Assembly: GCA_965206315.1 (NCBI GenBank)
Contig: OZ242210.1
Span: forward strand, 2,641,619 to 2,705,618
From: Dehalococcoidia bacterium
GTDB lineage: Bacteria > Chloroflexota > Dehalococcoidia > Lucifugimonadales > Australimonadaceae
Direction: 5' to 3'
Length of the DNA stretch: 64,000 bases
In this document: one piece after another, positions 3,247-36,377 of the stretch
Position numbering within the stretch: the first letter of the stretch is position 1
Layout of the letters: each line of letters starts with the position of its first letter
Notes under the pieces: model-generated
The model's database searches: none
The model's input: only the letters and a program-made list of their open reading frames with translations
Told to the model about the DNA's origin: nothing
Position numbers and translations under genes: made by a program

Positions 3247-3530
3247 TCGTCATTCCCGCCCCCCACCCGTCATTCCCGCACCGGCGGGAATCCAGGTGCG
3301 CGGGCAGCGCACGCGGCGGGGCCGTGGGTGGTGGTGTCTGACGTAGGGGCGTCCCTCGTGGGCGCCCTGCCTGGCCCCCCCTCTCCTGAGGGAGAGGGCA
3401 ACGCGCTTCAGCGCGTGGGTGAGGGCCCTCGGGGCGAGGCCGGGTGGGGGCCTTGTCGTTCCGAGCGGAGCGCAGCGGAGTCGAGGAATCTCTCAGGAAA
3501 AGGGGCAGCCGTGTGGCTGCCCCTACATCA
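3247..3530. repeat. intergenic cluster of interspersed repeats (A, C, B, D, C families)
   Basis: A: gtcattcccgcaccggcgggaatccagg at 3269-3296. C: gtaggggcgtccctcgtgggcgccc at 3343-3368. B: cctctcctgagggagagggcaacgcgcttcagcgcgtgggtgagggcc at 3380-3427. D: ttgtcgttccgagcggagcgcagcggagtcgaggaatctctcagg at 3453-3497. C: ggggcagccgtgtggctgcccctaca at 3502-3527. Confidence 0.9.
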
Positions 3531-4705: not shown

Positions 4706-4791
4706 GTCTCGCTCCTCCCGTCGGTCTCAGTAGTACGTGCGCCCCACTTTACCACGAGTGCAGGTTGTCTCGTCATTCCCGCCTCTTCCCG

Positions 4792-5802
4792 TCATTCCCG
4801 CGAAGGCGGGAAGGTGGATTCACATTCGAAGTGCAACACCTGCTCTCGTAGCACCTCGGCCGGGGTCTGCCACTCGAGGCACTTGCGCGGCGTATTGTTA
4901 TACACCCTCAACAGCGCCGTGAACTCTCCCTCCGACAGTGAGGCCAGGTTCGTCTTGCGGGGTAAGAACCAGCGCATCCGTCCGATAGCGTTCTCCACGC
5001 CTCCCTTCTGCCACGGAGAATAGGTGTCGCAGAAGAACGTCTCGATGCCCCAGGCGTGGAGTTCGTAGTGGTGGGCGAACTCCGTGCCGTTGTCGAACGT
5101 GACCGTCTGGCGGAACTCCGGTGGCAGCGGTCCCAGGACGGCGGCGATGGCTTTGGCGACCGGTGCTGCTGCCCTCGAAGGTCGCCGCACCGCGATCAGC
5201 AGCCTTGAACGGCGCTCGTGCAGCATCAGCACCGTCTGCCCGGTCCTGCCGAACTGCATCCCATCCGCCTCCCAGTGCCCGAATGTCTGCCGGTCGGCAA
5301 CTGCTGCAGGGCGTTCCGAGAGCGGCCGGCGGTGCAGAATGGTGCGGGCCGAACTGCTCCCTCCGCGCTGGTGCCGACCGCGCCGCCACTTCCCCCGTCG
5401 CAAGAGCTTGCGCCACGAATAGTCCTTCGTCCGCGCTATCTGCGCGTAGATGAACCGGTAGATGCTCTCATGGGAGGTGACGCTCTTGCCGCGCTCCTTC
5501 TTCAACCGCCCCGCCACTGCCTCCGGCGACCAGCCCAGTTGCAACCCGCTCAGCACATCCCTGCGGAGCTCGTCGTCTCGGTCCAGCCGTGCGCCACTCC
5601 AGCGCCGTGCACGGGCCTGCTCGTGGGCATAGGTCGCCCGGTAGCCGCCGTCCTTCGTGCCGTTGCGCTTCAACTCCCGAGCAATCGTCGGTGGCGGGCG
5701 ATCCAGAGTTGCTGCGATTTCCCGGAGCGAGCGCCCCTCAGCACGTAGGCGGGCAATCGCACAGCGTTCCTCAATCCCAAGCTGCGTATAGCGGTTCCCC
5801 AT
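4792..5802 (-). CDS. IS30 family transposase
   Basis: 336-aa ORF with an N-terminal HTH (RSLREIAATLDRPPPTIARELKRN) and a DDE core (HWEAD ... TFDNGTEF ... PWQKGGVEN). The reading frame runs through the left IR and stops at the TGA of the flanking hairpin. Confidence 0.9.
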   Translation of the reverse strand: MGNRYTQLGIEERCAIARLRAEGRSLREIAATLDRPPPTIARELKRNGTKDGGYRATYAHEQARARRWSGARLDRDDELRRDVLSGLQLGWSPEAVAGRLKKERGKSVTSHESIYRFIYAQIARTKDYSWRKLLRRGKWRRGRHQRGGSSSARTILHRRPLSERPAAVADRQTFGHWEADGMQFGRTGQTVLMLHERRSRLLIAVRRPSRAAAPVAKAIAAVLGPLPPEFRQTVTFDNGTEFAHHYELHAWGIETFFCDTYSPWQKGGVENAIGRMRWFLPRKTNLASLSEGEFTALLRVYNNTPRKCLEWQTPAEVLREQVLHFECESTFPPSRE

Positions 5803-5844
5803 GGCAACACCTTAGTCTGGTGTTGCACTTCGTTTGTGAACTTA
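4813..5844 (-). mobile_element. IS30-family insertion sequence, copy 1 (about 1.03 kb), inserted in a family-A hairpin
   Basis: Imperfect terminal inverted repeats ttcacattcgaagtgcaacacc (4819-4840) and ggtgttgcacttcgtttgtgaa (5819-5840). The flanks gcgggaa | IS | gggaacccaggtgg rebuild a family-A unit. GGGAA is present on both sides. Confidence 0.85.
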
Positions 5845-6077
5845 GGGAACCCAGGTGGCCGCCAGGCTACGCGGCGCTGTGCGAACAAGAGGCACGCCTG
5901 GATGTCTTCCGGCTCGAGGAAGGTGTACTCCCGCAGGATGTCCTCTGCTGTATCTCCGGCCGCAAGCATCCCGAGAACGTGCTCCACCGCGATACGCATG
6001 TCGCGGATGATCGGTTTGCCGCCGAAGACATCCGCCCGCACCGTGATGCGTTCGAGTATCTCTTGTTCAGTAGGCAT
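5670..6077 (-). CDS. DUF433 domain protein whose 3' end is altered by the IS30 insertion
   Basis: ATG at 6077, 3 nt after the MFS stop. The product MPTEQEILERITVRADVFGGKPIIRDMRIAVEHVLGMLAAGDTAEDILREYTFLEPEDIQACLLFA is a typical DUF433. The frame then reads into the IS right IR (PKFTNEVQHQTK...) and stops only at 5670. Without the IS it would end ...PPGFPPSRE at the hairpin TGA. Confidence 0.6.
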   Translation of the reverse strand: MPTEQEILERITVRADVFGGKPIIRDMRIAVEHVLGMLAAGDTAEDILREYTFLEPEDIQACLLFAQRRVAWRPPGFPKFTNEVQHQTKVLPWGTAIRSLGLRNAVRLPAYVLRGARSGKSQQLWIARHRRLLGS

Positions 6078-8575: not shown

Positions 8576-8598
8576 CGTCATTCCCGCGAAAGCGGGAA
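8576..8598. repeat. left half of a family-A hairpin (left inverted repeat of GIY-YIG unit 1), interrupted by IS30 copy 2
   Basis: cgtcattcccgcgaaagcgggaa is followed directly by the IS end ggtgaattcaca. The rest of the unit (tctcg) resumes at 9633. Confidence 0.8.
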
Positions 8599-9627
8599 GG
8601 TGAATTCACATTCGAAGTGCAACACCTAGTCTAGGACCTCGGCCGGGGTCCGGTAGCCGAGGCACTTGCGCGGCGTATTGTTGTAGGCCTGCACGAGCTC
8701 TGCAAACTGCTCGTCCGTCACAGTGACGAGGTCAGTCTTCCGTGGCAGCATCCGGCGCATCCTACCGATCGCATTCTCTACACCTCCCTTCTGCCACGGG
8801 GCGTGGGTGTCACAGAAGAAGGTCTCCATCCCAAGCGCGTGCAACTCGTGATGCCGCGCGAACTCCGTCCCGTTGTCGAACGTCACCGTTCGGCGCAGTT
8901 GCGGCGGGAACCTTCCCAATGCCCCCGACATCACACGGGCAATCGGCCCCGAGGCCTTTCCCGGAGGACGCACCGCAATCAGCAGCCGCGAATGCCGCTC
9001 ATGCAGCGTCAACACAGCCTGGCCGTAGGTACTGAACAGCATCAGGTCCGCCTCCCAGTGCCCAGGCTCTCGCCGGTCTGCTGCCGATGCAGGCCGCTCC
9101 GAGAGCGGTCGACGCAGACGGATGAACGAGGCCGGACTGCCTCCCCCGCGCCCGCGCCGGCCCCGCTTCGACTTCCCTCGCGGCAGGTAGTGGCGCCACG
9201 TGTAGTCCTTCGTCCGTCTGATCTGCCCGTAGATGAACCGGTAGATGCTCTCGTGGGAGATGATGCGTCTGCCTTTCACCAGGGCGAGTCGGTTCACGAC
9301 TTCCTCCGGCGACCACCCTCTCCCAAGGGCGGCAAGCACCTCTGCGCGCAGAGGACCATCACGCTCCAGCCGTGCTCCGCTCCAACGACGGGCTCGCGCC
9401 TGCTGTTCTGCATACCGTGGCTGATAGCCATCCCTCCTCGATCTGTTGCGCTTCAGTTCCCGAGCAACCGTCGATGGCGCGCGATCCAGAGCTGCAGCGA
9501 TTTGCCGGACCGAGTGTCCCTCGGCTTGTAAGCGGGCAATCGCACACCGCTCTTCAATGGAGACCTGCTGATAGTGCTTTCCCATGGCAACACCCTAATG
9601 AGGTGTTGCACTTCGTTTGTGAACTTA
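8599..9627 (-). mobile_element. IS30-family insertion sequence, copy 2 (about 1.03 kb), inserted in a family-A hairpin
   Basis: IRs ttcacattcgaagtgcaacacc (8605-8626) and ggtgttgcacttcgtttgtgaa (9602-9623) are the same as in copy 1. GGGAA is on both flanks (8594-8598 and 9628-9632). Confidence 0.85.
8626..9585 (-). CDS. IS30 family transposase (diverged paralogue of 4792-5802)
   Basis: 319-aa ORF collinear with copy 1. It is clearly related but diverged (roughly two-thirds identical by eye) and carries the same HTH and DDE motifs. Confidence 0.9.
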   Translation of the reverse strand: MGKHYQQVSIEERCAIARLQAEGHSVRQIAAALDRAPSTVARELKRNRSRRDGYQPRYAEQQARARRWSGARLERDGPLRAEVLAALGRGWSPEEVVNRLALVKGRRIISHESIYRFIYGQIRRTKDYTWRHYLPRGKSKRGRRGRGGGSPASFIRLRRPLSERPASAADRREPGHWEADLMLFSTYGQAVLTLHERHSRLLIAVRPPGKASGPIARVMSGALGRFPPQLRRTVTFDNGTEFARHHELHALGMETFFCDTHAPWQKGGVENAIGRMRRMLPRKTDLVTVTDEQFAELVQAYNNTPRKCLGYRTPAEVLD

Positions 9628-9662
9628 GGGAATCTCGTATCCCTTACCCCTATACTCAACGC

Positions 9663-9974
9663 ATGACCTCTACACCCCGCCAAATCCGCCAGCCCTGCGT
9701 CTACCCCATCACCAGCAGACCCGGCGGTCCACTCTACGTGGGCGTCACGTCCAACCTCATTCAGCGCGTCTGGCAGCACAAGTCCCACTTTGCGCAAGGG
9801 TTCACAGACCGCTATAACATTGCCAGGCTCGTGTGGTTCGAGCAGCACGAAACTATGGAGAGTGCCATCACGCGGGAGAAGGCGATCAAGAAGTGGAATC
9901 GCGCTTGGAAAGAAGAACTGATCGAGGGGCAGAACCCTTCCTGGCATGACCTCTGTGACGACATCTGCCGATAG
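9663..9974 (+). CDS. GIY-YIG nuclease family protein (small stand-alone URI-domain type)
   Basis: MTSTPRQIRQPCVYPITSRPGGPLYVGVTSNLIQRVWQHK...REKAIKKWNRAWK shows the GIY-YIG motifs, the conserved Arg and the Glu. Confidence 0.85.
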   Translation: MTSTPRQIRQPCVYPITSRPGGPLYVGVTSNLIQRVWQHKSHFAQGFTDRYNIARLVWFEQHETMESAITREKAIKKWNRAWKEELIEGQNPSWHDLCDDICR

Positions 9975-9978
9975 GCTG

Positions 9979-10006
9979 CGAGATTCCCGCTTTCGCGGAA
10001 TGACGG
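9979..10006. repeat. family-A hairpin in inverted orientation (right inverted repeat of GIY-YIG unit 1)
   Basis: cgagattcccgctttcgcggaatgacgg. Its reverse complement, ccgtcattccgcgaaagcgggaatctcg, matches the reconstructed left unit (8576-8598 plus 9633-9637) except for one base. Confidence 0.85.
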
Positions 10007-12294: not shown

Positions 12295-12437
12295 CGCGCG
12301 GGTGAGGGCCCTGAGTGCGGTGCGGAGGTGGGTTGTCATTTCGAGCGGAGCGCAGCGGAGTCGAGAAATCTCTCAGGAATCGCCCGCTCATGGTGAGCCT
12401 GACGAACCACCCGTCGTTCCTGCGCAGGCAGGAACCT
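12295..12437. repeat. intergenic repeat cluster (B tail, D, F, A' families)
   Basis: The cluster contains gcgcgcgggtgagggccc, ttgtcatttcgagcggagcgcagcggagtcgagaaatctctcagg, cgctcatggtgagcctgacgaaccaccc and gtcgttcctgcgcaggcaggaacc. Confidence 0.9.
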
Positions 12438-16872: not shown

Positions 16873-16994
16873 CGCACCCTCCTCAACGTGCCTTCGGCAC
16901 GCGTCATCCTACACCGTTGCCGAACTCACTATTCCAGCCAGCGACGTCGGTCCACAACTACGTCATTCCCGCCACCGGCGTCGGCCCACAATTA

Positions 16995-17023
16995 CGTCAT
17001 TCCAGCGAAAGCTGGAATCCAGG
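16995..17023. repeat. family-A hairpin, left inverted repeat of GIY-YIG unit 2
   Basis: cgtcattccagcgaaagctggaatccagg. The exact reverse complement recurs at 17444-17472. Confidence 0.9.
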
Positions 17024-17090
17024 CGCGTTAGCGCACGCAGCGGCTCAGCGAGCCGCTCGCAACATCCCGCCGTCGGCTACACTCCCCTCC

Positions 17091-17405
17091 ATGACCTCCG
17101 CTCCCCGCCGCAGAGAACCGCGCCGTCCTTGTGTCTACATCCTCGCCAGCCGGCGCAACGGCACGCTCTACACCGGTGTCACCTCCAACCTGCCTCAGCG
17201 CATCTGGCAACACAAGCAAGGCCTCGGTGATGGCTTCACAAGGAGATACGGCATCCACTTGCTCGTGTGGTACGAGCAGCACGAGACGATGATGAGCGCC
17301 GTCGGTCGCGAGAAGGCGATCAAGGCCTGGAAGCGAGGCTGGAAGATTGAACTCATCGAGACATCCAATCCGAAGTGGCGCGACCTCTACGAAGAAATAG
17401 GTTGA
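17091..17405 (+). CDS. GIY-YIG nuclease family protein (paralogue of 9663-9974)
   Basis: MTSAPRREPRRPCVYILASRRNGTLYTGVTSNLPQRIWQHK...REKAIKAWKRGWK. It is collinear with the first copy, and the few bases around the ATG are also shared. Confidence 0.85.
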   Translation: MTSAPRRREPRRPCVYILASRRNGTLYTGVTSNLPQRIWQHKQGLGDGFTRRYGIHLLVWYEQHETMMSAVGREKAIKAWKRGWKIELIETSNPKWRDLYEEIG

Positions 17406-17443
17406 CGCCTCCTCGCCCCTCCCGCCGTGTGACCTGACGGTCA

Positions 17444-17472
17444 CCTGGATTCCAGCTTTCGCTGGAATGACG
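17444..17472. repeat. family-A hairpin, right inverted repeat of GIY-YIG unit 2
   Basis: cctggattccagctttcgctggaatgacg is the reverse complement of 16995-17023 (29 of 29). Confidence 0.9.
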
Positions 17473-21805: not shown

Positions 21806-23578
21806 TCACCACACCCCCAGCCGGTTCCGCGACGCGCTGTCGTCCTCGTCATCATCCTGGTCCAGAGGCGGCGGCTCCGCGTACGGCGGCGGGAGGTCAT
21901 AGCCGTAGGCCTCGATGTGCGGCCTCGGCGGGGGGTCGCGCAGGAAGGGCTCGGCGCCCGTCCAGATGCCGAACGACGGCGGAACGAGGAACGCGAGCGC
22001 GAGTGCGTCGGCCTTGTCCGGCGAGGGCATGCCGCGTTTGCGCATCTCCGGCTTGCCTTCCAGCCGGATCTGCCCCGAACTCGAGATGTCGTAGCGCAGC
22101 CCGAGCAGTTGACCGGCCAGCTCCTCGTCGCGCGGGATGGCGATCAGCCGGCGCTCCAGCAGCCTGCGCAACTCCCAGAAGATCTCCGATCGGCGGTTGA
22201 AGAAGCGCATCGGACGCTTGGCCGCGCCGCCGAAGTGGACGCCGTAGACCGGCGATCCAAGCTCACGAAGGCGGTCGACGACGCCCCCGCCGACGCCGCC
22301 CTCGTCGACGAAGATCGCCTCCGCGTTCCACTCCCGCACCGCGCGACGCACTTCGAACACGAGGCGCATCGTGTCCATGCGCTCGAACGAGCGCACCGAC
22401 AGCACACGCTGTCCCTGCCGCACGCAGATGGCCGACTTGTCGAAGCCGTACCGCGCCACGTCGACGCCGATGTAGACGGGCTCGTTGGGGTCGAAGAAGC
22501 CCTCACCCGCACTTCCAGTGCACCCTCTCCCGGGGGAGAGGTGACTATCGTCATTCCCGCCCTCACCGTCATTCCCGCGCAGGCGGGAATCTCGCAGCCC
22601 AGGGGAGGTAGGGGGCGAGGTTCCTGCCTCCGCAGGAACGACGGGTCCATCCCCACTCCCCGCCGGTACACCCTCACCCGCCGCACTGTCGTGCGCCGAC
22701 CTCTCCCCGAGGGAGAGGTGTGTTTGACTCCCCTCGCCCGCGGATGGTTGGCCTGTTTGGCCCCCCTCGCCTTGGACGGTGGACGTCTCCCACCGCTCCA
22801 TGGCGGACTCCACCGCCTCGCGGCCTACGAGCGAGTCGTCGAGTGCGTCGGGGAACCGGGCGAGGACGGACGCGGCGTAGAGCGGGTGGTCCTCGCCGTA
22901 GTCGAGCGCGTACTCCTCGGCGTACTCGGGCGTGATCATGCCGCGCCTGCCGCCGCCCTCGCCGGTGAAGTTGGGCGTGTCGAACGCGGAGATGGCGATG
23001 CGGTGGTAGAAGTTCCGCTTCGCGTGGTGCGAGGCGTAGAACTCGCCGTCGCGCGAGAGCGCGTTGCCGACCAGCAGGAGGCGCTCCGGCTGCAGCCGCT
23101 TGATGGCGTCGACGTGCGCCTGCGGCATGGCGTGCGCCTCGGTGACGACAACGAGCAGCTCCGCCGCGTGGAAGCCCTGGATGTTGAGCGCGTTGTTGGT
23201 CGAGAAGCCGAGCGCGAACCGCTGCTCGTCGATGCGGTACGCGTTCGTGAGCATCCGCCCGCTGAGCACGTCCGCGGCAGCCGCGTACGCCTCGCGCATC
23301 TCCCGCCACACGATCTCCTCGACCTGCCGCTGCGTCGGGCCGAGGGTGAGGGCCTTGCTCTCCGGGCGCGTCTCCAGCCACCAGAGCACGGCGCGGCCGG
23401 CAACCCAGTCCTTGCCGGAGCCGTTCGCCCCGACGACGCTGACGCGCCGGTTGTCGACGAGCGCTTCGAGCATCTCGGCCTGCTTCGAGTACGGCGTTCC
23501 GGTGCCGCCGAGCACGTCGGTCACGAACCCGACGGGGTCGTTCGCGTAGTGTGTAAAGTCCTCTGCCACGGCTACCAC
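21806..23578 (-). CDS. phage terminase large subunit (TerL)-like protein carrying an in-frame repeat-derived insert between the ATPase and nuclease domains
   Basis: Walker A-like VVGANGSGKDW and Walker B-like LLVVVTEAH. The RNaseH-like nuclease half shows YIGVDVARYGFDKSA, IFVDEGGVGGGVVDRL and SPDKADALALAF. GTG starts are possible at 23578 or 23569. About 95 codons (about 22500-22775) are built from A/B-type repeats. Confidence 0.8.
   Translation of the reverse strand: MVAVAEDFTHYANDPVGFVTDVLGGTGTPYSKQAEMLEALVDNRRVSVVGANGSGKDWVAGRAVLWWLETRPESKALTLGPTQRQVEEIVWREMREAYAAAADVLSGRMLTNAYRIDEQRFALGFSTNNALNIQGFHAAELLVVVTEAHAMPQAHVDAIKRLQPERLLLVGNALSRDGEFYASHHAKRNFYHRIAISAFDTPNFTGEGGGRRGMITPEYAEEYALDYGEDHPLYAASVLARFPDALDDSLVGREAVESAMERWETSTVQGEGGQTGQPSAGEGSQTHLSLGERSAHDSAAGEGVPAGSGDGPVVPAEAGTSPPTSPGLRDSRLRGNDGEGGNDDSHLSPGRGCTGSAGEGFFDPNEPVYIGVDVARYGFDKSAICVRQGQRVLSVRSFERMDTMRLVFEVRRAVREWNAEAIFVDEGGVGGGVVDRLRELGSPVYGVHFGGAAKRPMRFFNRRSEIFWELRRLLERRLIAIPRDEELAGQLLGLRYDISSSGQIRLEGKPEMRKRGMPSPDKADALALAFLVPPSFGIWTGAEPFLRDPPPRPHIEAYGYDLPPPYAEPPPLDQDDDEDDSASRNRLGVW
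22500..22775. repeat. block of at least four interspersed repeat units lying inside the TerL ORF
   Basis: The block contains cctcacccgcacttccagtgcaccctctcccgggggagaggtg, cgtcattcccgccctcaccgtcattcccgcgcaggcgggaatctcgc, gcgaggttcctgcctccgcaggaacgacggg and caccctcacccgccgcactgtcgtgcgccgacctctccccgagggagaggtg. The boundaries are approximate. Confidence 0.8.
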
Positions 23579-23675
23579 ACCTCTCTCACCCGATTAACGC
23601 CCCGTTCCCGCCCCTACCCGTCATTCCCGCGAAGGCGGGAATCCAGAGGGGGTGTGGTGGGGGGGGGGTTAACAT

Positions 23676-23938: not shown

Positions 23939-24361
23939 CTACTCTCTCACCAACTCGATGCGGTCTGCATAGCGGCGGAAGTCGGTGGTGTTGAACGTCA
24001 GCAGCCGACGCTCGCCGTGCGCCAGCATGGTCGCTACGATGTTGGCGTCGTGGACCTGCCGCCCTCCCATGGGGAATGCTCGGCAGAGTTCGAGCAGCGA
24101 CGCGGTCACCAGTGGGCCGTCTTCGAGCACATCGAAATCGGCTATCAACCGCTCGACATCGTCGACCGCTTCCTCTCGCGTGATGGCGCCAGGCCACGCC
24201 TGGGGCCGGGTGACCACAGAGAGATACTCACGCAGCACCTGACGGCTGATCCGCAGGGGTTCGGCGTTCTCCAAGGCACGCTCCAGCCGGCTCCTAGCGG
24301 CGTCGCAGTGTGGCGATTCGGAGAAGCGGGCGTAAACGAACACGTTGGTGTCTACGAACAT
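23939..24361 (-). CDS. vapC: PIN-domain toxin (VapC-like)
   Basis: MFVDTNVFVY... ...VHDANIVATMLAHG...LLTFNTTDF carries the PIN acidic residues. Confidence 0.85.
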   Translation of the reverse strand: MFVDTNVFVYARFSESPHCDAARSRLERALENAEPLRISRQVLREYLSVVTRPQAWPGAITREEAVDDVERLIADFDVLEDGPLVTASLLELCRAFPMGGRQVHDANIVATMLAHGERRLLTFNTTDFRRYADRIELVRE

Positions 24362-24368
24362 CGGGGGG

Positions 24369-24776
24369 TTAGACCCTGTCCTCGTACATGTCCTCCCGCC
24401 GGAGACTCAGGCCTTCAGGCCACCGCGCTGTGGGATGGACCGGCCATATCTCGTCAAGGCTGAGTCTGCGACCCGGCTCCGATCGCTCACGCTTCCTGAG
24501 CAGCAGGGTCTCGGCGTCCATGTTGACGTTCGCGGTTTCCCAGCCCGCCAGGGTCCACGCGAGCGATTGACTGTGGCCGTTGCCGTTGCTCTGGTTGCCC
24601 CACCAGGGGCGGTGCAGGCGTGCCGAGGCAGGCAGATCAAATCCCAACACCGACTCGATCTCACCGAAGGAAGTATTCCACTCCTGGGCAGAAAGGCTGC
24701 AGAGGTGCGCATACAGCTTTCGGTATTTGCCGCGTGCGGCCATCTCCCTGTATCGCTGTTCGCGAGCTATCGTCAT
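24369..24776 (-). CDS. candidate antitoxin: unrecognised N-terminal domain fused to a VapB-like C-terminal tail
   Basis: 135-aa ORF with a GGAGGGAGG RBS, ending 7 nt before the PIN start. The C-terminal LSLDEIWPVHPTARWPEGLSLRREDMYEDRV resembles PIN-binding antitoxin tails. The N-terminal half (KYRKLYAHLCSL...FGEIESVLGFDLPASARLHRPWWGN) is a separate module. Confidence 0.6.
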   Translation of the reverse strand: MTIAREQRYREMAARGKYRKLYAHLCSLSAQEWNTSFGEIESVLGFDLPASARLHRPWWGNQSNGNGHSQSLAWTLAGWETANVNMDAETLLLRKRERSEPGRRLSLDEIWPVHPTARWPEGLSLRREDMYEDRV

Positions 24777-24855
24777 CCGGACCTCCCTCCTCGCTCCAAT
24801 GCTACCCGTTTACCATATTAGTTAGTTAGTGTATCCGGCGCAAGGGCAATGCGGT

Positions 24856-25020
24856 TCACCCTCACCCGCTGCGCTACCGCGCCCCGACCTCTCCCAGAGG
24901 GCGAGGTGATCAGGTGGGCACCCACAAGGGGTGCCCCTACACCAGGCACCCCTCACCTATCTCGCCCCACCCCCGTGCCCTACGGGTACTCTGGATTCCC
25001 GCCTTCGCGAGAATGACGGA
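24856..25020. repeat. repeat cluster (B, C, A families); the composite recurs at 28061-28250
   Basis: The cluster contains caccctcacccgctgcgctaccgcgccccgacctctcccagagggcgaggtg, gggcacccacaaggggtgcccctaca and ctctggattcccgccttcgcgagaatgacgg. Confidence 0.9.
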
Positions 25021-25369
25021 GAGGGGGTTGGAAGAGGGGGCGGCGGGCGGGGCAGCGGCAGGTCTTGCCGAGGTTCAGGAGGTCGCCCTCGGCCCAGGCG
25101 TGGACAATGGCCAGGACGATGCGGGCAGGATCGGGGGTACGTCCGGTCTTCGCGCACTGGCGGAGGTAGGCGTCGACGGGGACGGGACTGAGGACGGGGA
25201 CGCTCACGGCTCCCGCGGCCTCAAAGAGGTCCGCGAGGTCGGGCGGGTACTCGCCGCGCTCGACGGCTTCGGCCCAGCGGTCGACGTAGTCGTCGGCGAT
25301 GGGTCTGAGCCTGGCCTGCGCCGCGAGGCAGCCGAGGTAGCGTTCCATGGCCCTGACGCTGCTTCTCAT
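24980..25369 (-). CDS. hypothetical protein, translationally coupled to the upstream HTH gene
   Basis: ATG 25369 overlaps the stop of the upstream gene (ATGA). The C terminus reads into the repeat cluster. I recognise no family. Confidence 0.4.
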   Translation of the reverse strand: MRSSVRAMERYLGCLAAQARLRPIADDYVDRWAEAVERGEYPPDLADLFEAAGAVSVPVLSPVPVDAYLRQCAKTGRTPDPARIVLAIVHAWAEGDLLNLGKTCRCPARRPLFQPPLRHSREGGNPEYP

Positions 25370-25767
25370 CGCTGCTGCCTTATGAGGGTGATGGCGTTCT
25401 CCAGCGTGTCCATCCGGCGTCGCGTTTCTCGCTGGTCGCGGACGCTCATCGACATGGAAAGGGCGGTCTTCGACGCGCGATGGGCCACGTTGGGGTTGTC
25501 GCTGTCCATCAATTGCTCGATGCGGACGGCTCCCTTGAGGGCGAGTCCCTCCAACTGGGAGAAGGCGAAGTCCGCGATGTTGTTGCGGATACGCTCCAGC
25601 TCGTCACGGAAGGCGGGCTCGTTCATCCAGCGCGTGAGGGTGCGCCTCGTGATCTGTGCGGCCTGCGCTCCACGCGTGATGGTGGGCTCGGACGCGACGT
25701 ACGGAAGGGCGGCAGCCTGCCGCGGCGAAAGGGCAATCGTTCTCTCAGGTGAGACATTGTGAGACAT
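25366..25767 (-). CDS. HTH protein, possible terminase small subunit
   Basis: The 133-aa product starts MSHNVSPERT, with GGAGGAGG 11 nt upstream. An N-terminal HTH-like segment (ITRGAQAAQITRRTLTRWMNEPAFRDEL) is followed by a helical tail. It lies upstream of TerL on the same strand. The track ORF (to 26010) is over-extended. Confidence 0.45.
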   Translation of the reverse strand: MSHNVSPERTIALSPRQAAALPYVASEPTITRGAQAAQITRRTLTRWMNEPAFRDELERIRNNIADFAFSQLEGLALKGAVRIEQLMDSDNPNVAHRASKTALSMSMSVRDQRETRRRMDTLENAITLIRQQR

Positions 25768-25903
25768 CTCGGGACATACCTCCTCCAGGATTCGGCCCCG
25801 CGTCCGGCGGTGCGCCGGGCGACGGTGGGCCGTCGAGGACAGGGTAGGCAGAGCAGGGTCGTTCGGGCAATGGGCGGATGTCACAAAGGTGACGCAACTT
25901 CGA

Positions 25904-26503
25904 CTATACGCCCATCCTACTTCCAACATCACTCTCGTATACCCATGAGAAGTCCGGCGGAGGGTCGGTCGGTTCCGCATCTCCGATAAAGACCCAAAAG
26001 GCCGACGCACACCTTATTGAGAGGCCATCATTCGGGCGAATCTCACTCCATAACCCGGTTTCTCCACCGTGAAACGTGAAAGCGCACCACCATCGCAGCC
26101 CAATGAGATACTCGTCCAGCGTAAGCAGGTCTCCTGTGTAGTCCCCTGCTCGCTGGAGATGCCAATCCACACATCCAACGAGGTTCCACCCTTCGCACAA
26201 CGGAGGTTGGTATTCCTTCAGCGGGTCCAACATGGCGTCAATGGGACAAGCATCCATCGAGTGAACCCAGTAGCCATACCCTGCCTCAACCTGCTCCAGC
26301 ATCCCTCTCCACGCGCCACCTTCCTCTCGAATCGCAGCCACCCACTCCCCGTCTCGATAACCCAAGACGACCGACACCGAAGGCGGGAACACGTCACTCA
26401 ATCTCCCCTGGGCAAGTGTTCCGGGGAATGACATCATGTTCCATCCTCTCTGAAGAGGTATCTTGTAGGGGATTGCCATTGTGTTCCTTCCCCACCGGTC
26501 CAT
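25904..26503 (-). CDS. hypothetical protein with two GWN...(Y/F)WV repeat modules
   Basis: 199-aa ORF in a lower-GC stretch. An internal duplication is visible (PLQRGWNMMSFPG...GYGYWV and PLCEGWNLVGCVD...ASAFWV). Confidence 0.5.
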   Translation of the reverse strand: MDRWGRNTMAIPYKIPLQRGWNMMSFPGTLAQGRLSDVFPPSVSVVLGYRDGEWVAAIREEGGAWRGMLEQVEAGYGYWVHSMDACPIDAMLDPLKEYQPPLCEGWNLVGCVDWHLQRAGDYTGDLLTLDEYLIGLRWWCAFTFHGGETGLWSEIRPNDGLSIRCASAFWVFIGDAEPTDPPPDFSWVYESDVGSRMGV

Positions 26504-34186: not shown

Positions 34187-34216
34187 GATGCGTGCTCCTT
34201 GTTCGTTGTCGGGGGT

Positions 34217-34386
34217 AACCCTCACCCCCAGCCCCTCTCCCAGTGGGAGAGGGGAGTAAAGGCACCCTTCATGGGTGCCCGAGGCAAGGGCGCCCACAAG
34301 GGACGCCCCTACACCTGACCCCATTCCCCACACCACCGCGTGACCTGCCCGGTCACCCTGGATTCCCGCCGGTGCGGGAATGACGA
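34217..34386. repeat. intergenic repeat cluster (B, C, C, A-long inverted)
   Basis: The cluster contains accctcacccccagcccctctcccagtgggagaggggag, ggcacccttcatgggtgccc, gggcgcccacaagggacgcccctaca and gcgtgacctgcccggtcaccctggattcccgccggtgcgggaatgacg. Confidence 0.9.
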
Positions 34387-34395
34387 GGTTTGCTC

Positions 34396-36056: not shown

Positions 36057-36139
36057 CCAAGGTCACTTTCGTCAGCAAACCATACGCCTGTCCTTCGGTG
36101 TGTGCACGCAGCGGGGGAGCAGGCACGGGCGCTCCACCA

Positions 36140-36298
36140 ACCCTCACCCACGCGCTAAAGCGCGTTGCCCTCTCCCAGAGGGAGAGGGGGAAGGCCCTTG
36201 GGCACCCACAAGGGATGCCCCTACACCGGGCACCGAACACCACCCCCACGCAAGGGCCCTGGCAGGCACCCTGGATTCCCGCCTTCGCGGGAATGACG
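36140..36298. repeat. intergenic repeat cluster (B inverted, C, A inverted)
   Basis: The cluster contains accctcacccacgcgctaaagcgcgttgccctctcccagagggagagggg, gggcacccacaagggatgcccctaca and ccctggattcccgccttcgcgggaatgacg. Confidence 0.9.
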
Positions 36299-36377
36299 AG
36301 GTTTGGGTGCGCTTGACTACGCCTTGCGGCGGGCGCACACTGCCAGCAGCAGCCGATCGCATAAAGGAGGCGTGGCC

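Follow-up and report, generated by a model that had tools for sequence, protein, structure and literature searches.

The stretch of DNA analysed here (the window) comprises 64,000 nt of contig OZ242210.1 from a Dehalococcoidia bacterium; positions are given in window coordinates, and L-numbers label the loci and genomes with which it was compared. The window contains a small nuclease gene, here designated ssn1, that lies between two inverted copies of a hairpin repeat. A repeat finder identified the two copies as a perfect 29-nt inverted repeat at 16995-17023 and 17444-17472, with 100% complementarity and 420 nt between the arms. The 478-bp unit delimited by the arms contains a 104-codon open reading frame (ORF) at 17091-17405 that matches the Pfam GIY-YIG family (PF01541) with an E value of 2e-14 over residues 13-85 of 104. 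This was the only family match of the predicted protein, which has a single domain. Further mechanically predicted ORFs overlap the unit, none of them with family support. These results agree with an earlier description of the locus made from its letters (the sequence-only reading), which had reported the exact reverse-complementary recurrence of the 29-nt arm as well as the single 104-codon GIY-YIG gene between the arms. The ATG assigned to ssn1 is backed by an alignment with six related genes.

The remaining features of the unit are listed in Table 1. The left hairpin folds as single-stranded DNA (ssDNA), and a 66-nt stretch containing it gave a z value of -2.9. At the position of the second hairpin inside the right arm, the related locus L003 contains GTGCC-TGTCC-GGCAC, in which the changes are compensatory. 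Consensus promoter and terminator scans identified neither a sigma-70-like promoter nor an intrinsic terminator in the ssn1 cassette; the TACACT sequence upstream of the gene is possibly the -10 box of a leaderless transcript. The 34-nt half-hairpin repeat that abuts the left arm is present in two copies beside ssn1, compared to one copy beside the orthologous cassette of L120. The data support the view that the gene and its inverted hairpins form one discrete unit.

Identification as an Ssn cassette

The Ssn family described by Chenal et al. (2025, Nat Commun 16:2388; PMC11893778) consists of single-domain GIY-YIG nucleases of about 94 residues, including SsnA of Neisseria meningitidis (94 aa, NMV_0044/NMB0047, CDD cd10448). 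SsnA and three homologues bind a hairpin called NTS, CGTCATTCCCGCGMAVGCGGGAATCYRG, solely as ssDNA and on the forward strand only, and cut a few nt 5' of it; the characterised enzymes include Neisseria and Wolbachia ones, and the identity of the loop is dispensable for cleavage (PMC11893778). A degenerate version of the hairpin, the Ssn-related motif (SRM), extended the family to variants that depart from the strict NTS (PMC11893778). The association between gene and hairpin was demonstrated genome-wide, with an SRM near 71% of the homologues and on both sides of 42% (PMC11893778). The NTS-ssnA-NTS layout was likened, as a hypothesis, to an insertion sequence and to REP/RAYT systems, and its mobile or domesticated nature was left open, the main text containing no comparative test (PMC11893778).

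The ssn1 protein was 60% identical over 92 aa, without gaps, to the 94-aa homologue of N. gonorrhoeae (L081:1498-1779), with E values of 6e-42 in the pairwise comparison and 2e-30 by tblastn. Both values lie beyond the homology threshold of the published study (E < 1e-10). The comparison protein is gonococcal and was equated with meningococcal SsnA on the basis of its identical length and its identical Y6/Y17/E64 numbering; it was taken from PLSDB records NZ_CP119140.1 and NZ_CP119142.1 (L081, L112-L119), which are 2.17-Mb N. gonorrhoeae chromosomes filed as plasmids. Residues Y16, Y27 and E74 of the ssn1 protein align with Y6, Y17 and E64 of SsnA, whose mutation abolishes cleavage. The published SRM motif, HGTCWYN(0-2)YYVSBRHN(0-5)WNVSBRGN(0-2)RNCYNB, fits 16995-17022 on the forward strand and 17445-17472 on the reverse strand. 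The ssn1 arms agree with the strict Neisseria NTS at 26 of 28 positions and so fall outside that consensus; the two differences, C10A and G19T, constitute a compensatory stem pair. The N. gonorrhoeae ssnA gene was flanked on both sides by NTS copies of mixed orientation.

Other assignments were less satisfactory. No NCBIfam model matched the ssn1 protein, and Rfam gave no match in the window. The protein matched the solved UPF0213 proteins (PDB 1zg2 and 1ywl) weakly, with E values of 1.5e-4 and 1.8e-3, a far poorer match than that to SsnA. UPF0213/YhbQ proteins (BH0048, EF2693, YhbQ) are likewise small single-domain GIY-YIG proteins of ~100 aa but probably represent a different subfamily, and the label 'YhbQ/COG2827-like' used in the sequence-only reading was imprecise. 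With a single domain and no joined DNA-binding domain, the protein also differs from GIY-YIG homing endonucleases of the I-TevI type, whose genes reside in introns or phage genomes. Among 2.9 million viral contigs only 16 relatives were found, and curated phages gave weak, partial matches; carriage of the ssn cassette by phages is rare.

From the protein alignment and the hairpin motif, the segment is very probably an SRM-ssn-SRM cassette of the Ssn system. The cassette is therefore a rediscovery of a published system and is not reportable as new. The sequence-only reading had held that no GIY-YIG partner of REP-like hairpins was described, whereas the pairing of Ssn with NTS and SRM hairpins is described in PMC11893778. 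Its suggestion of a new kind of minimal mobile element fared better in part: the element is not new, and it is gained and lost as one block (see below). Literature queries combining GIY-YIG with REP or COG2827 returned no match, and the Ssn paper was found through the hairpin sequence itself.

A genome scan yielded 80 loci with relatives of the ssn1 protein at 56-80% identity, from Dehalococcoidia, several classes of Pseudomonadota, Terriglobia, Latescibacterota and other groups. The nearest named relatives were in Dehalococcoidia metagenome-assembled genomes (L001-L003). In many of the 80 loci, a forward hairpin lies ~10-140 nt upstream of the gene and a reverse hairpin ~10-100 nt downstream, and the stem variants co-vary across loci (CCGGC, CCAGC, CCCGC, CCTGC, ATCCCCGC and ACCCCGGC). 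This association of gene and hairpin across phyla repeats the published finding (PMC11893778).

The ssn1 hairpins belong to a repeat family (family A) that is scattered through the window, as had been noted from the letters. Its core palindrome, ATTCCNGC-N4-GCNGGAAT, occurs 17 times in the window compared to 0 times in 100 shuffles; the published SRM pattern gave 14 matches compared to a mean of 0.76 in 50 shuffles, and a looser oriented pattern recovered about 30 family-A copies. Two of the copies, at 23619 and 28099, conform to the strict Neisseria NTS consensus. The earlier claim that the arm, loop and tail combination of ssn1 (CCAGC/GAAA/CCAGG) is confined to its two flanks held for the whole window. 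Identity of the left and right hairpins of ssn1 by chance is unlikely, because only ~4% of random family-A pairs are identical over 28 nt in our own tally of the listed window sequences. The only genes in the window bracketed by inverted family-A hairpins are ssn1 and a second GIY-YIG gene, ssn2. The interpretation of the scattered family-A hairpins as partner sites of the cassette is supported.

Table 1. Coordinates of the ssn cassettes and associated features in the window
Feature	Coordinates	Strand	Description and evidence
Polymorphic segment	16913..17505	.	593 bp (two half-hairpin repeats, cassette, 33 bp) vs 15 bp in L094
Two tandem 34-nt repeats	16931..16998	+	Each with 5' half of hairpin (ATTCC[A/C]GCC...ACGTC), abutting left SRM; repeat finder family D1
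Left SRM hairpin	16995..17023	+	Forward reading CGTCATTCCAGC-GAAA-GCTGGAATCCAGG; 8-bp stem, 4-nt loop; fits published SRM pattern
Small second hairpin GCGC-GTTA-GCGC	17023..17034	+	Directly inside left SRM; folding; similar variable hairpin after most family-A copies
Leader hairpin GCGGCTC-AGC-GAGCCGC	17040..17056	+	Alignment; also in related cassette of L003
TACACT	17078..17083	+	Core of a stretch kept in nearly all of the six cassettes aligned; ATG 7 nt further on
ssn1, 104-codon single-domain GIY-YIG nuclease gene, very probably Ssn family	17091..17405	+	Pfam, alignment to Neisseria protein, dN/dS
Second hairpin GTGACC-TGAC-GGTCAC	17429..17444	+	Directly inside right SRM; alignment and folding
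Right SRM hairpin	17444..17472	-	Exact reverse complement of left SRM; SRM pattern; folding
ssn2 cassette	8576..10005	+	SRM 8576-8598, IS30-family element ~8599-9628, rest of SRM 9629-9637, ssn2 coding sequence 9663-9974, right SRM 9979-10005
Solo family-A SRM	23619..23646	+	~64-bp module in window and L095, absent in L094

Occupied and empty sites in related genomes

Genome L094 (GCA_965243745.1) is syntenic with the window over 13-39 kb at ~90% nucleotide identity. The site of ssn1, which lies between an SDR gene and an amidohydrolase gene, is empty in L094, where 15 bp replace the polymorphic segment, and an orthologous ssn cassette occupies it in L120-L123. In other relatives the same intergenic region contains 106 bp of other repeats (L087), 966 bp of other repeats (L090) or a gene for a BrnA antitoxin (L095). 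L094 carries a different ssn cassette ~6 kb away, adjoining the orthologue of the window gene at 21806-23578. At that position the window contains only a solo hairpin module, which L094 lacks. Occupied and empty states, a comparison that the sequence-only reading had put forward, are also represented at the ssn2 site, for which L088 has an empty orthologous intergenic region of ~100 bp.

The boundaries of the cassette coincide with its hairpins. By blastn, the homology between the ssn1 cassette and the cassettes of L094 and L092, which lie in unrelated contexts, extended over exactly 16995-17472. The L003 locus has the same architecture (hairpin, leader hairpin, TACACT, gene, second hairpin, hairpin) between unrelated outer flanks. 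When the window was compared with L120-L123, a single difference appeared over the 59 positions of the two hairpins (98% conserved, loops included), whereas the leader is 57%, the coding sequence 79% and the trailer 64-67% identical (Fisher p about 3e-9). The 79% nucleotide identity of the coding region was also lower than that of the flanking host genes (88-91%); either faster evolution of the cassette or replacement by a paralogue at the same site would account for its greater divergence. The dN/dS of ssn1 was 0.10-0.15 relative to five related cassettes of other genomes and 0.29 relative to ssn2, and the ssn genes are under purifying selection (dN/dS 0.10-0.28).

Non-coding derivatives were present as well. 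Gene-less tandem doublets, each consisting of a forward SRM, a spacer and a reverse SRM (90-175 bp), surround the ssn gene in L082 (3790-5660) and L091 (9678-10910). In L091, the doublets and the ssn gene share their left and right hairpin types. The doublet arrays of L082 and L091 resemble REPIN/BIME clusters, and the window is almost devoid of doublets. The occurrence of one protein in two contexts in L082 and L083 was considered as evidence of mobility and rejected, the two loci being syntenic. From these comparisons we conclude that the cassette is a discrete hairpin-bounded unit that has been gained and lost and that has non-coding derivatives. The identification of the Ssn system and this discrete polymorphic cassette, taken together, can be stated with good confidence.

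The second cassette has the same layout. The ssn2 protein is 62% identical to that of ssn1 and matched the 94-aa N. gonorrhoeae homologue with an E value of 1e-43, with equivalents of the catalytic residues retained. The architecture and the private hairpin variant that had been attributed to this gene were both recovered (loop GAAA, tail CTCG), in hairpins that are damaged: the right SRM contains a 1-nt deletion, and an IS30-family insertion encoding HTH_38 and rve domains interrupts the left SRM. This element, with ends GGTGAATTCACATTCGAAGTGCAAC, is present at 4813-5845 and 8599-9628 in the window and at ~8907-9960 in L095. The three insertions share an identical position in the 3' arm of the SRM, after GCGGGAA, and two of them are beside an ssn gene. 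Because the position is shared, these insertions suggest that the IS30-family element targets the SRM hairpin.

Probable mobility of the cassette and the possible role of its nuclease

Given the empty site in a relative, the homology that extends from hairpin to hairpin and the conservation of the hairpins, the cassette probably moves as a block or did so recently. The hairpin-to-hairpin boundaries and insertion polymorphisms would be the first comparative evidence for the insertion sequence-like nature proposed for the Ssn system.

That Ssn itself is the mobilising enzyme is possible, though less likely than not. Homology to the Neisseria and Wolbachia enzymes predicts that Ssn1 binds the forward strand of the family-A hairpin only when it is single-stranded, and that it nicks a few nt 5' of the hairpin; from its sequence, the window enzyme is expected to share the published Ssn activity. 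The inverted arrangement of the flanking hairpins would place one predicted nick immediately beyond each end of the cassette, the two lying on opposite strands. Enzymes of this class would have additional cognate sites in the family-A hairpins dispersed through the window. Nicking by Ssn could then move or copy the cassette and the solo hairpins, possibly via a single-stranded intermediate.

A broader version of this proposal is that SRM-ssn-SRM units form a class of autonomous transposable elements outside any insertion sequence catalogue, with a ~100-aa GIY-YIG ssDNA nickase as the sole encoded protein. We regard it as doubtful. If it holds, opposite-strand nicks 5' of the terminal hairpins would allow the cassette, and gene-less modules in trans, to be copied or moved through a single-stranded intermediate, with the ends pairing at the single-stranded stage, which would maintain one and the same sequence, down to the loops, in the left and right hairpins.

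The two ends of a cassette do match in the lineage of the window. The cassette ends were identical or nearly so within each cassette yet different between cassettes, L091 being the only exception. Both ends had arm CCAGC and loop GAAA at ssn1, arm CCAGC and loop GGAG in L092, a CGTCT variant in L094, arm CCCGT and loop GAAA in L003, arm CCCGC and loop GAAG in L095, and arm CCCGC, loop GAAA and tail CTCG at ssn2. Since the identity of the loop is dispensable for cleavage, the mirrored loop changes suggest that one end was copied from the other or that pairing of the ends is under selection.

Several observations weigh against mobility driven by Ssn. The matching of left and right variants, which the sequence-only reading had put forward as a test, gave a mixed answer: it was strong in the lineage of the window, but across phyla it hardly exceeded the background, with 12 of 33 left/right pairs identical compared to 22-28% for control hairpins within a locus. 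Left/right identity is weak as a phylum-wide signature. No target-site duplication was found at either cassette. Among the cassettes compared there were no near-identical copies in different contexts (62-90% protein identity, dS about 1), and dS was ~1 even between cassettes of host genomes that share 90% identity, so that recent transposition is not demonstrated. Judged by the flanking genes, the closest relative (L094) is without the cassette and the slightly more distant L120-L123 have it; loss, gain or recombination could each explain this pattern at the ssn1 site. Two 5' nicks on opposite strands would not by themselves amount to a complete transposition chemistry. Moreover, the role demonstrated in Neisseria is host-level control of transformation, not mobility (PMC11893778). 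With inverted ends and with neither a duplication, a known transposase class nor near-identical copies, the cassette differs from a classical insertion sequence.

These points bear on a first alternative, according to which Ssn is a domesticated host system for ssDNA restriction or control of recombination, the hairpins regulate or mark the gene, and the polymorphism arose by deletion and homologous exchange. We consider this account possible rather than probable. The nicks would then serve a host function, e.g. limiting recombination with incoming ssDNA as in Neisseria, and the one biological role so far demonstrated for the family is of this kind, NTS-bearing DNA having shown a 5-fold effect in transformation of N. 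meningitidis (PMC11893778). Purifying selection on the ssn genes, the missing target-site duplications and identical copies, and the presence of the cassette at the same site in several relatives, which allows for stable inheritance, are in line with it. However, it does not readily explain why homology in unrelated contexts stops exactly at the outer hairpin ends, why cassettes occupy different sites in otherwise syntenic genomes, why solo hairpin modules are themselves insertion-polymorphic, or why gene-less doublets in relatives have the same left and right types as the ssn cassette of the same genome. A host function is not exclusive of mobilisation by Ssn, and the two roles of the nicks are compatible.

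A second alternative is that another enzyme, either a RAYT-type HUH transposase or an insertion sequence transposase, moves the hairpins, and that the GIY-YIG gene is a passenger or is merely located amid them. REP hairpins are known to be mobilised by RAYTs, and the IS30-family elements of the window physically interact with the hairpins. No RAYT or other Y1_Tnp (HUH Y1) transposase was identified among the ~50 window ORFs scanned; the window covers 64 kb of a genome whose source contig alone measures 2.87 Mb. The IS30 copies sit inside hairpins rather than being bounded by them, only the two ssn genes have the bracketing arrangement, and the association of gene and hairpin recurs in many phyla with co-varying stems, as well as genome-wide in PMC11893778. 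On balance, a different mobiliser appears improbable. It is very improbable that the hairpins act at the RNA level, as terminators or mRNA stabilisers that insulate the small gene with the inverted pair resulting from bidirectional termination: they are intergenic, GC-rich stem-loops, but they lack T-runs, terminator-like matches and Rfam matches, their conserved non-palindromic flanks CGTC and CCAG give them an orientation that is independent of gene direction, and a characterised enzyme of the family did not bind RNA (PMC11893778).

The cassette can be compared with known systems. The window cassette shares with the published Ssn system a ~100-aa single-domain GIY-YIG protein with its catalytic residues retained, the hairpin frame CGTCATTCC...GGAATCCAG, the same inverted motif on both sides of the gene and numerous solo intergenic copies. 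It differs in its host, a high-GC member of the Dehalococcoidia, a group unmentioned in the main text of the paper (PMC11893778), in the compensatory C:G to A:T stem change relative to the strict Neisseria NTS, and in the second, sequence-variable hairpin that follows most copies. In addition, the solo copies of the window are almost all single and uniformly oriented, whereas Neisseria has mixed arrays. REP/REPIN-RAYT systems are alike in having a small nuclease gene bracketed by inverted copies of a scattered hairpin repeat, in the expected recognition of ssDNA, and in the gene-less doublets and arrays seen in relatives of the window. The window enzyme, however, is a GIY-YIG rather than an HUH/Y1 protein, for which covalent tyrosine chemistry is not expected, and the window contains no RAYT. 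IS200/IS605 elements recognise ssDNA hairpins and cut away from the hairpin, as is predicted for Ssn1 from homology, and like the window cassettes they show no target duplication; in contrast, their ends are not inverted repeats, both of their cuts are on one strand, and their transposase belongs to a different class.

The window and its close relatives provide material for testing mobility in the form of natural occupied and empty sites, cassettes at differing positions in syntenic genomes, polymorphic solo modules and doublet arrays, and with this material the mobility question left open in PMC11893778 becomes testable. Should Ssn prove to be the mobilising enzyme, a GIY-YIG nickase would join the short list of prokaryotic transposase chemistries.

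Family-A hairpins and associated repeats in the window

The orientation of the family-A hairpins flips near 24000-25000, with 15 forward and 2 reverse copies before ~24 kb and 0 forward and 13 reverse copies after ~25 kb. Of the 2 reverse copies before ~24 kb, one forms the right end of ssn1 and the other belongs to a doublet. The pattern is unrelated to the strand of neighbouring genes and coincides with a rise in GC skew from about -0.1 to values near 0 or slightly above; on either side of the flip, the cleavable strand is therefore the C-rich one. Neither a dnaA gene nor a DnaA box was found nearby, and a replication origin at the flip was thus not supported. A replication-strand bias as a general rule was rejected for now, the 80 short loci giving no significant result (Spearman p 0.16). 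In 400 kb sampled from N. gonorrhoeae there was no strand bias (17 forward and 20 reverse copies at positive skew, 3 and 5 at negative skew). The flip is also the location of a lower-GC stretch (0.62) at 23939-26500, in which genes for a PIN-domain and a DUF7662 protein are accompanied by several ORFs with no family match, and which varies among the window, L094 and L095.

By our own reading of the listing, a second hairpin lies 3-25 nt away on the CCAG side of ~17 of 24 family-A copies. In examples at 1021-1035, 17429-17444 and 34336-34352, among others, its sequence varies and its pairing is maintained (GTGACC/GGTCAC, GTGCGC/GCGCAC, GTGCC/GGCAC, GCGTC/GACGC). The main text of the Ssn paper makes no mention of a second hairpin beside the SRM (PMC11893778). 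The 5' half of the family-A hairpin (CGTCATTCCNGCC) recurs ~20-34 nt upstream of many full hairpins (16931-16998, 3247-3268, 4773-4790 and 22549-22566), and it forms 19-nt tandem repeats in L082 (3930-4000). Repeated cutting and repair immediately 5' of the hairpin could have left these half-hairpins as a footprint.

A mosaic element of ~200 bp is present at 34192-34392 and at about 36120-36310. Its parts are a palindrome of the PLSP type, small hairpins, the second hairpin and, at its end, an SRM that finishes with ...GGAATGACGAGGTTTG, and it is an insertion relative to L094; CTCCT occurs on both sides at 34192 and represents a possible 5-bp target duplication. The dRS3/NIME repeats of Neisseria have the same core palindrome, ATTCCC-N8-GGGAAT, similarly embedded in mosaics of other short repeats and similarly targeted by insertion elements, which in the window are of the IS30 family. 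The mosaic partners in the window are other repeat modules, and the organism is unrelated.

Another hairpin family, CGTCGTTCCTGC-N4-GCAGGAACC, is present at 12413, 15910, 16018, 18736, 22621, 44519, 50453 and 62278. It falls outside the published SRM pattern because GTC is followed by G rather than by A or T. Its copies are usually followed by CTCGC...CCCTCGCCCTCTGGGAGAGGG modules, and their orientation flips in the same manner as that of family A.

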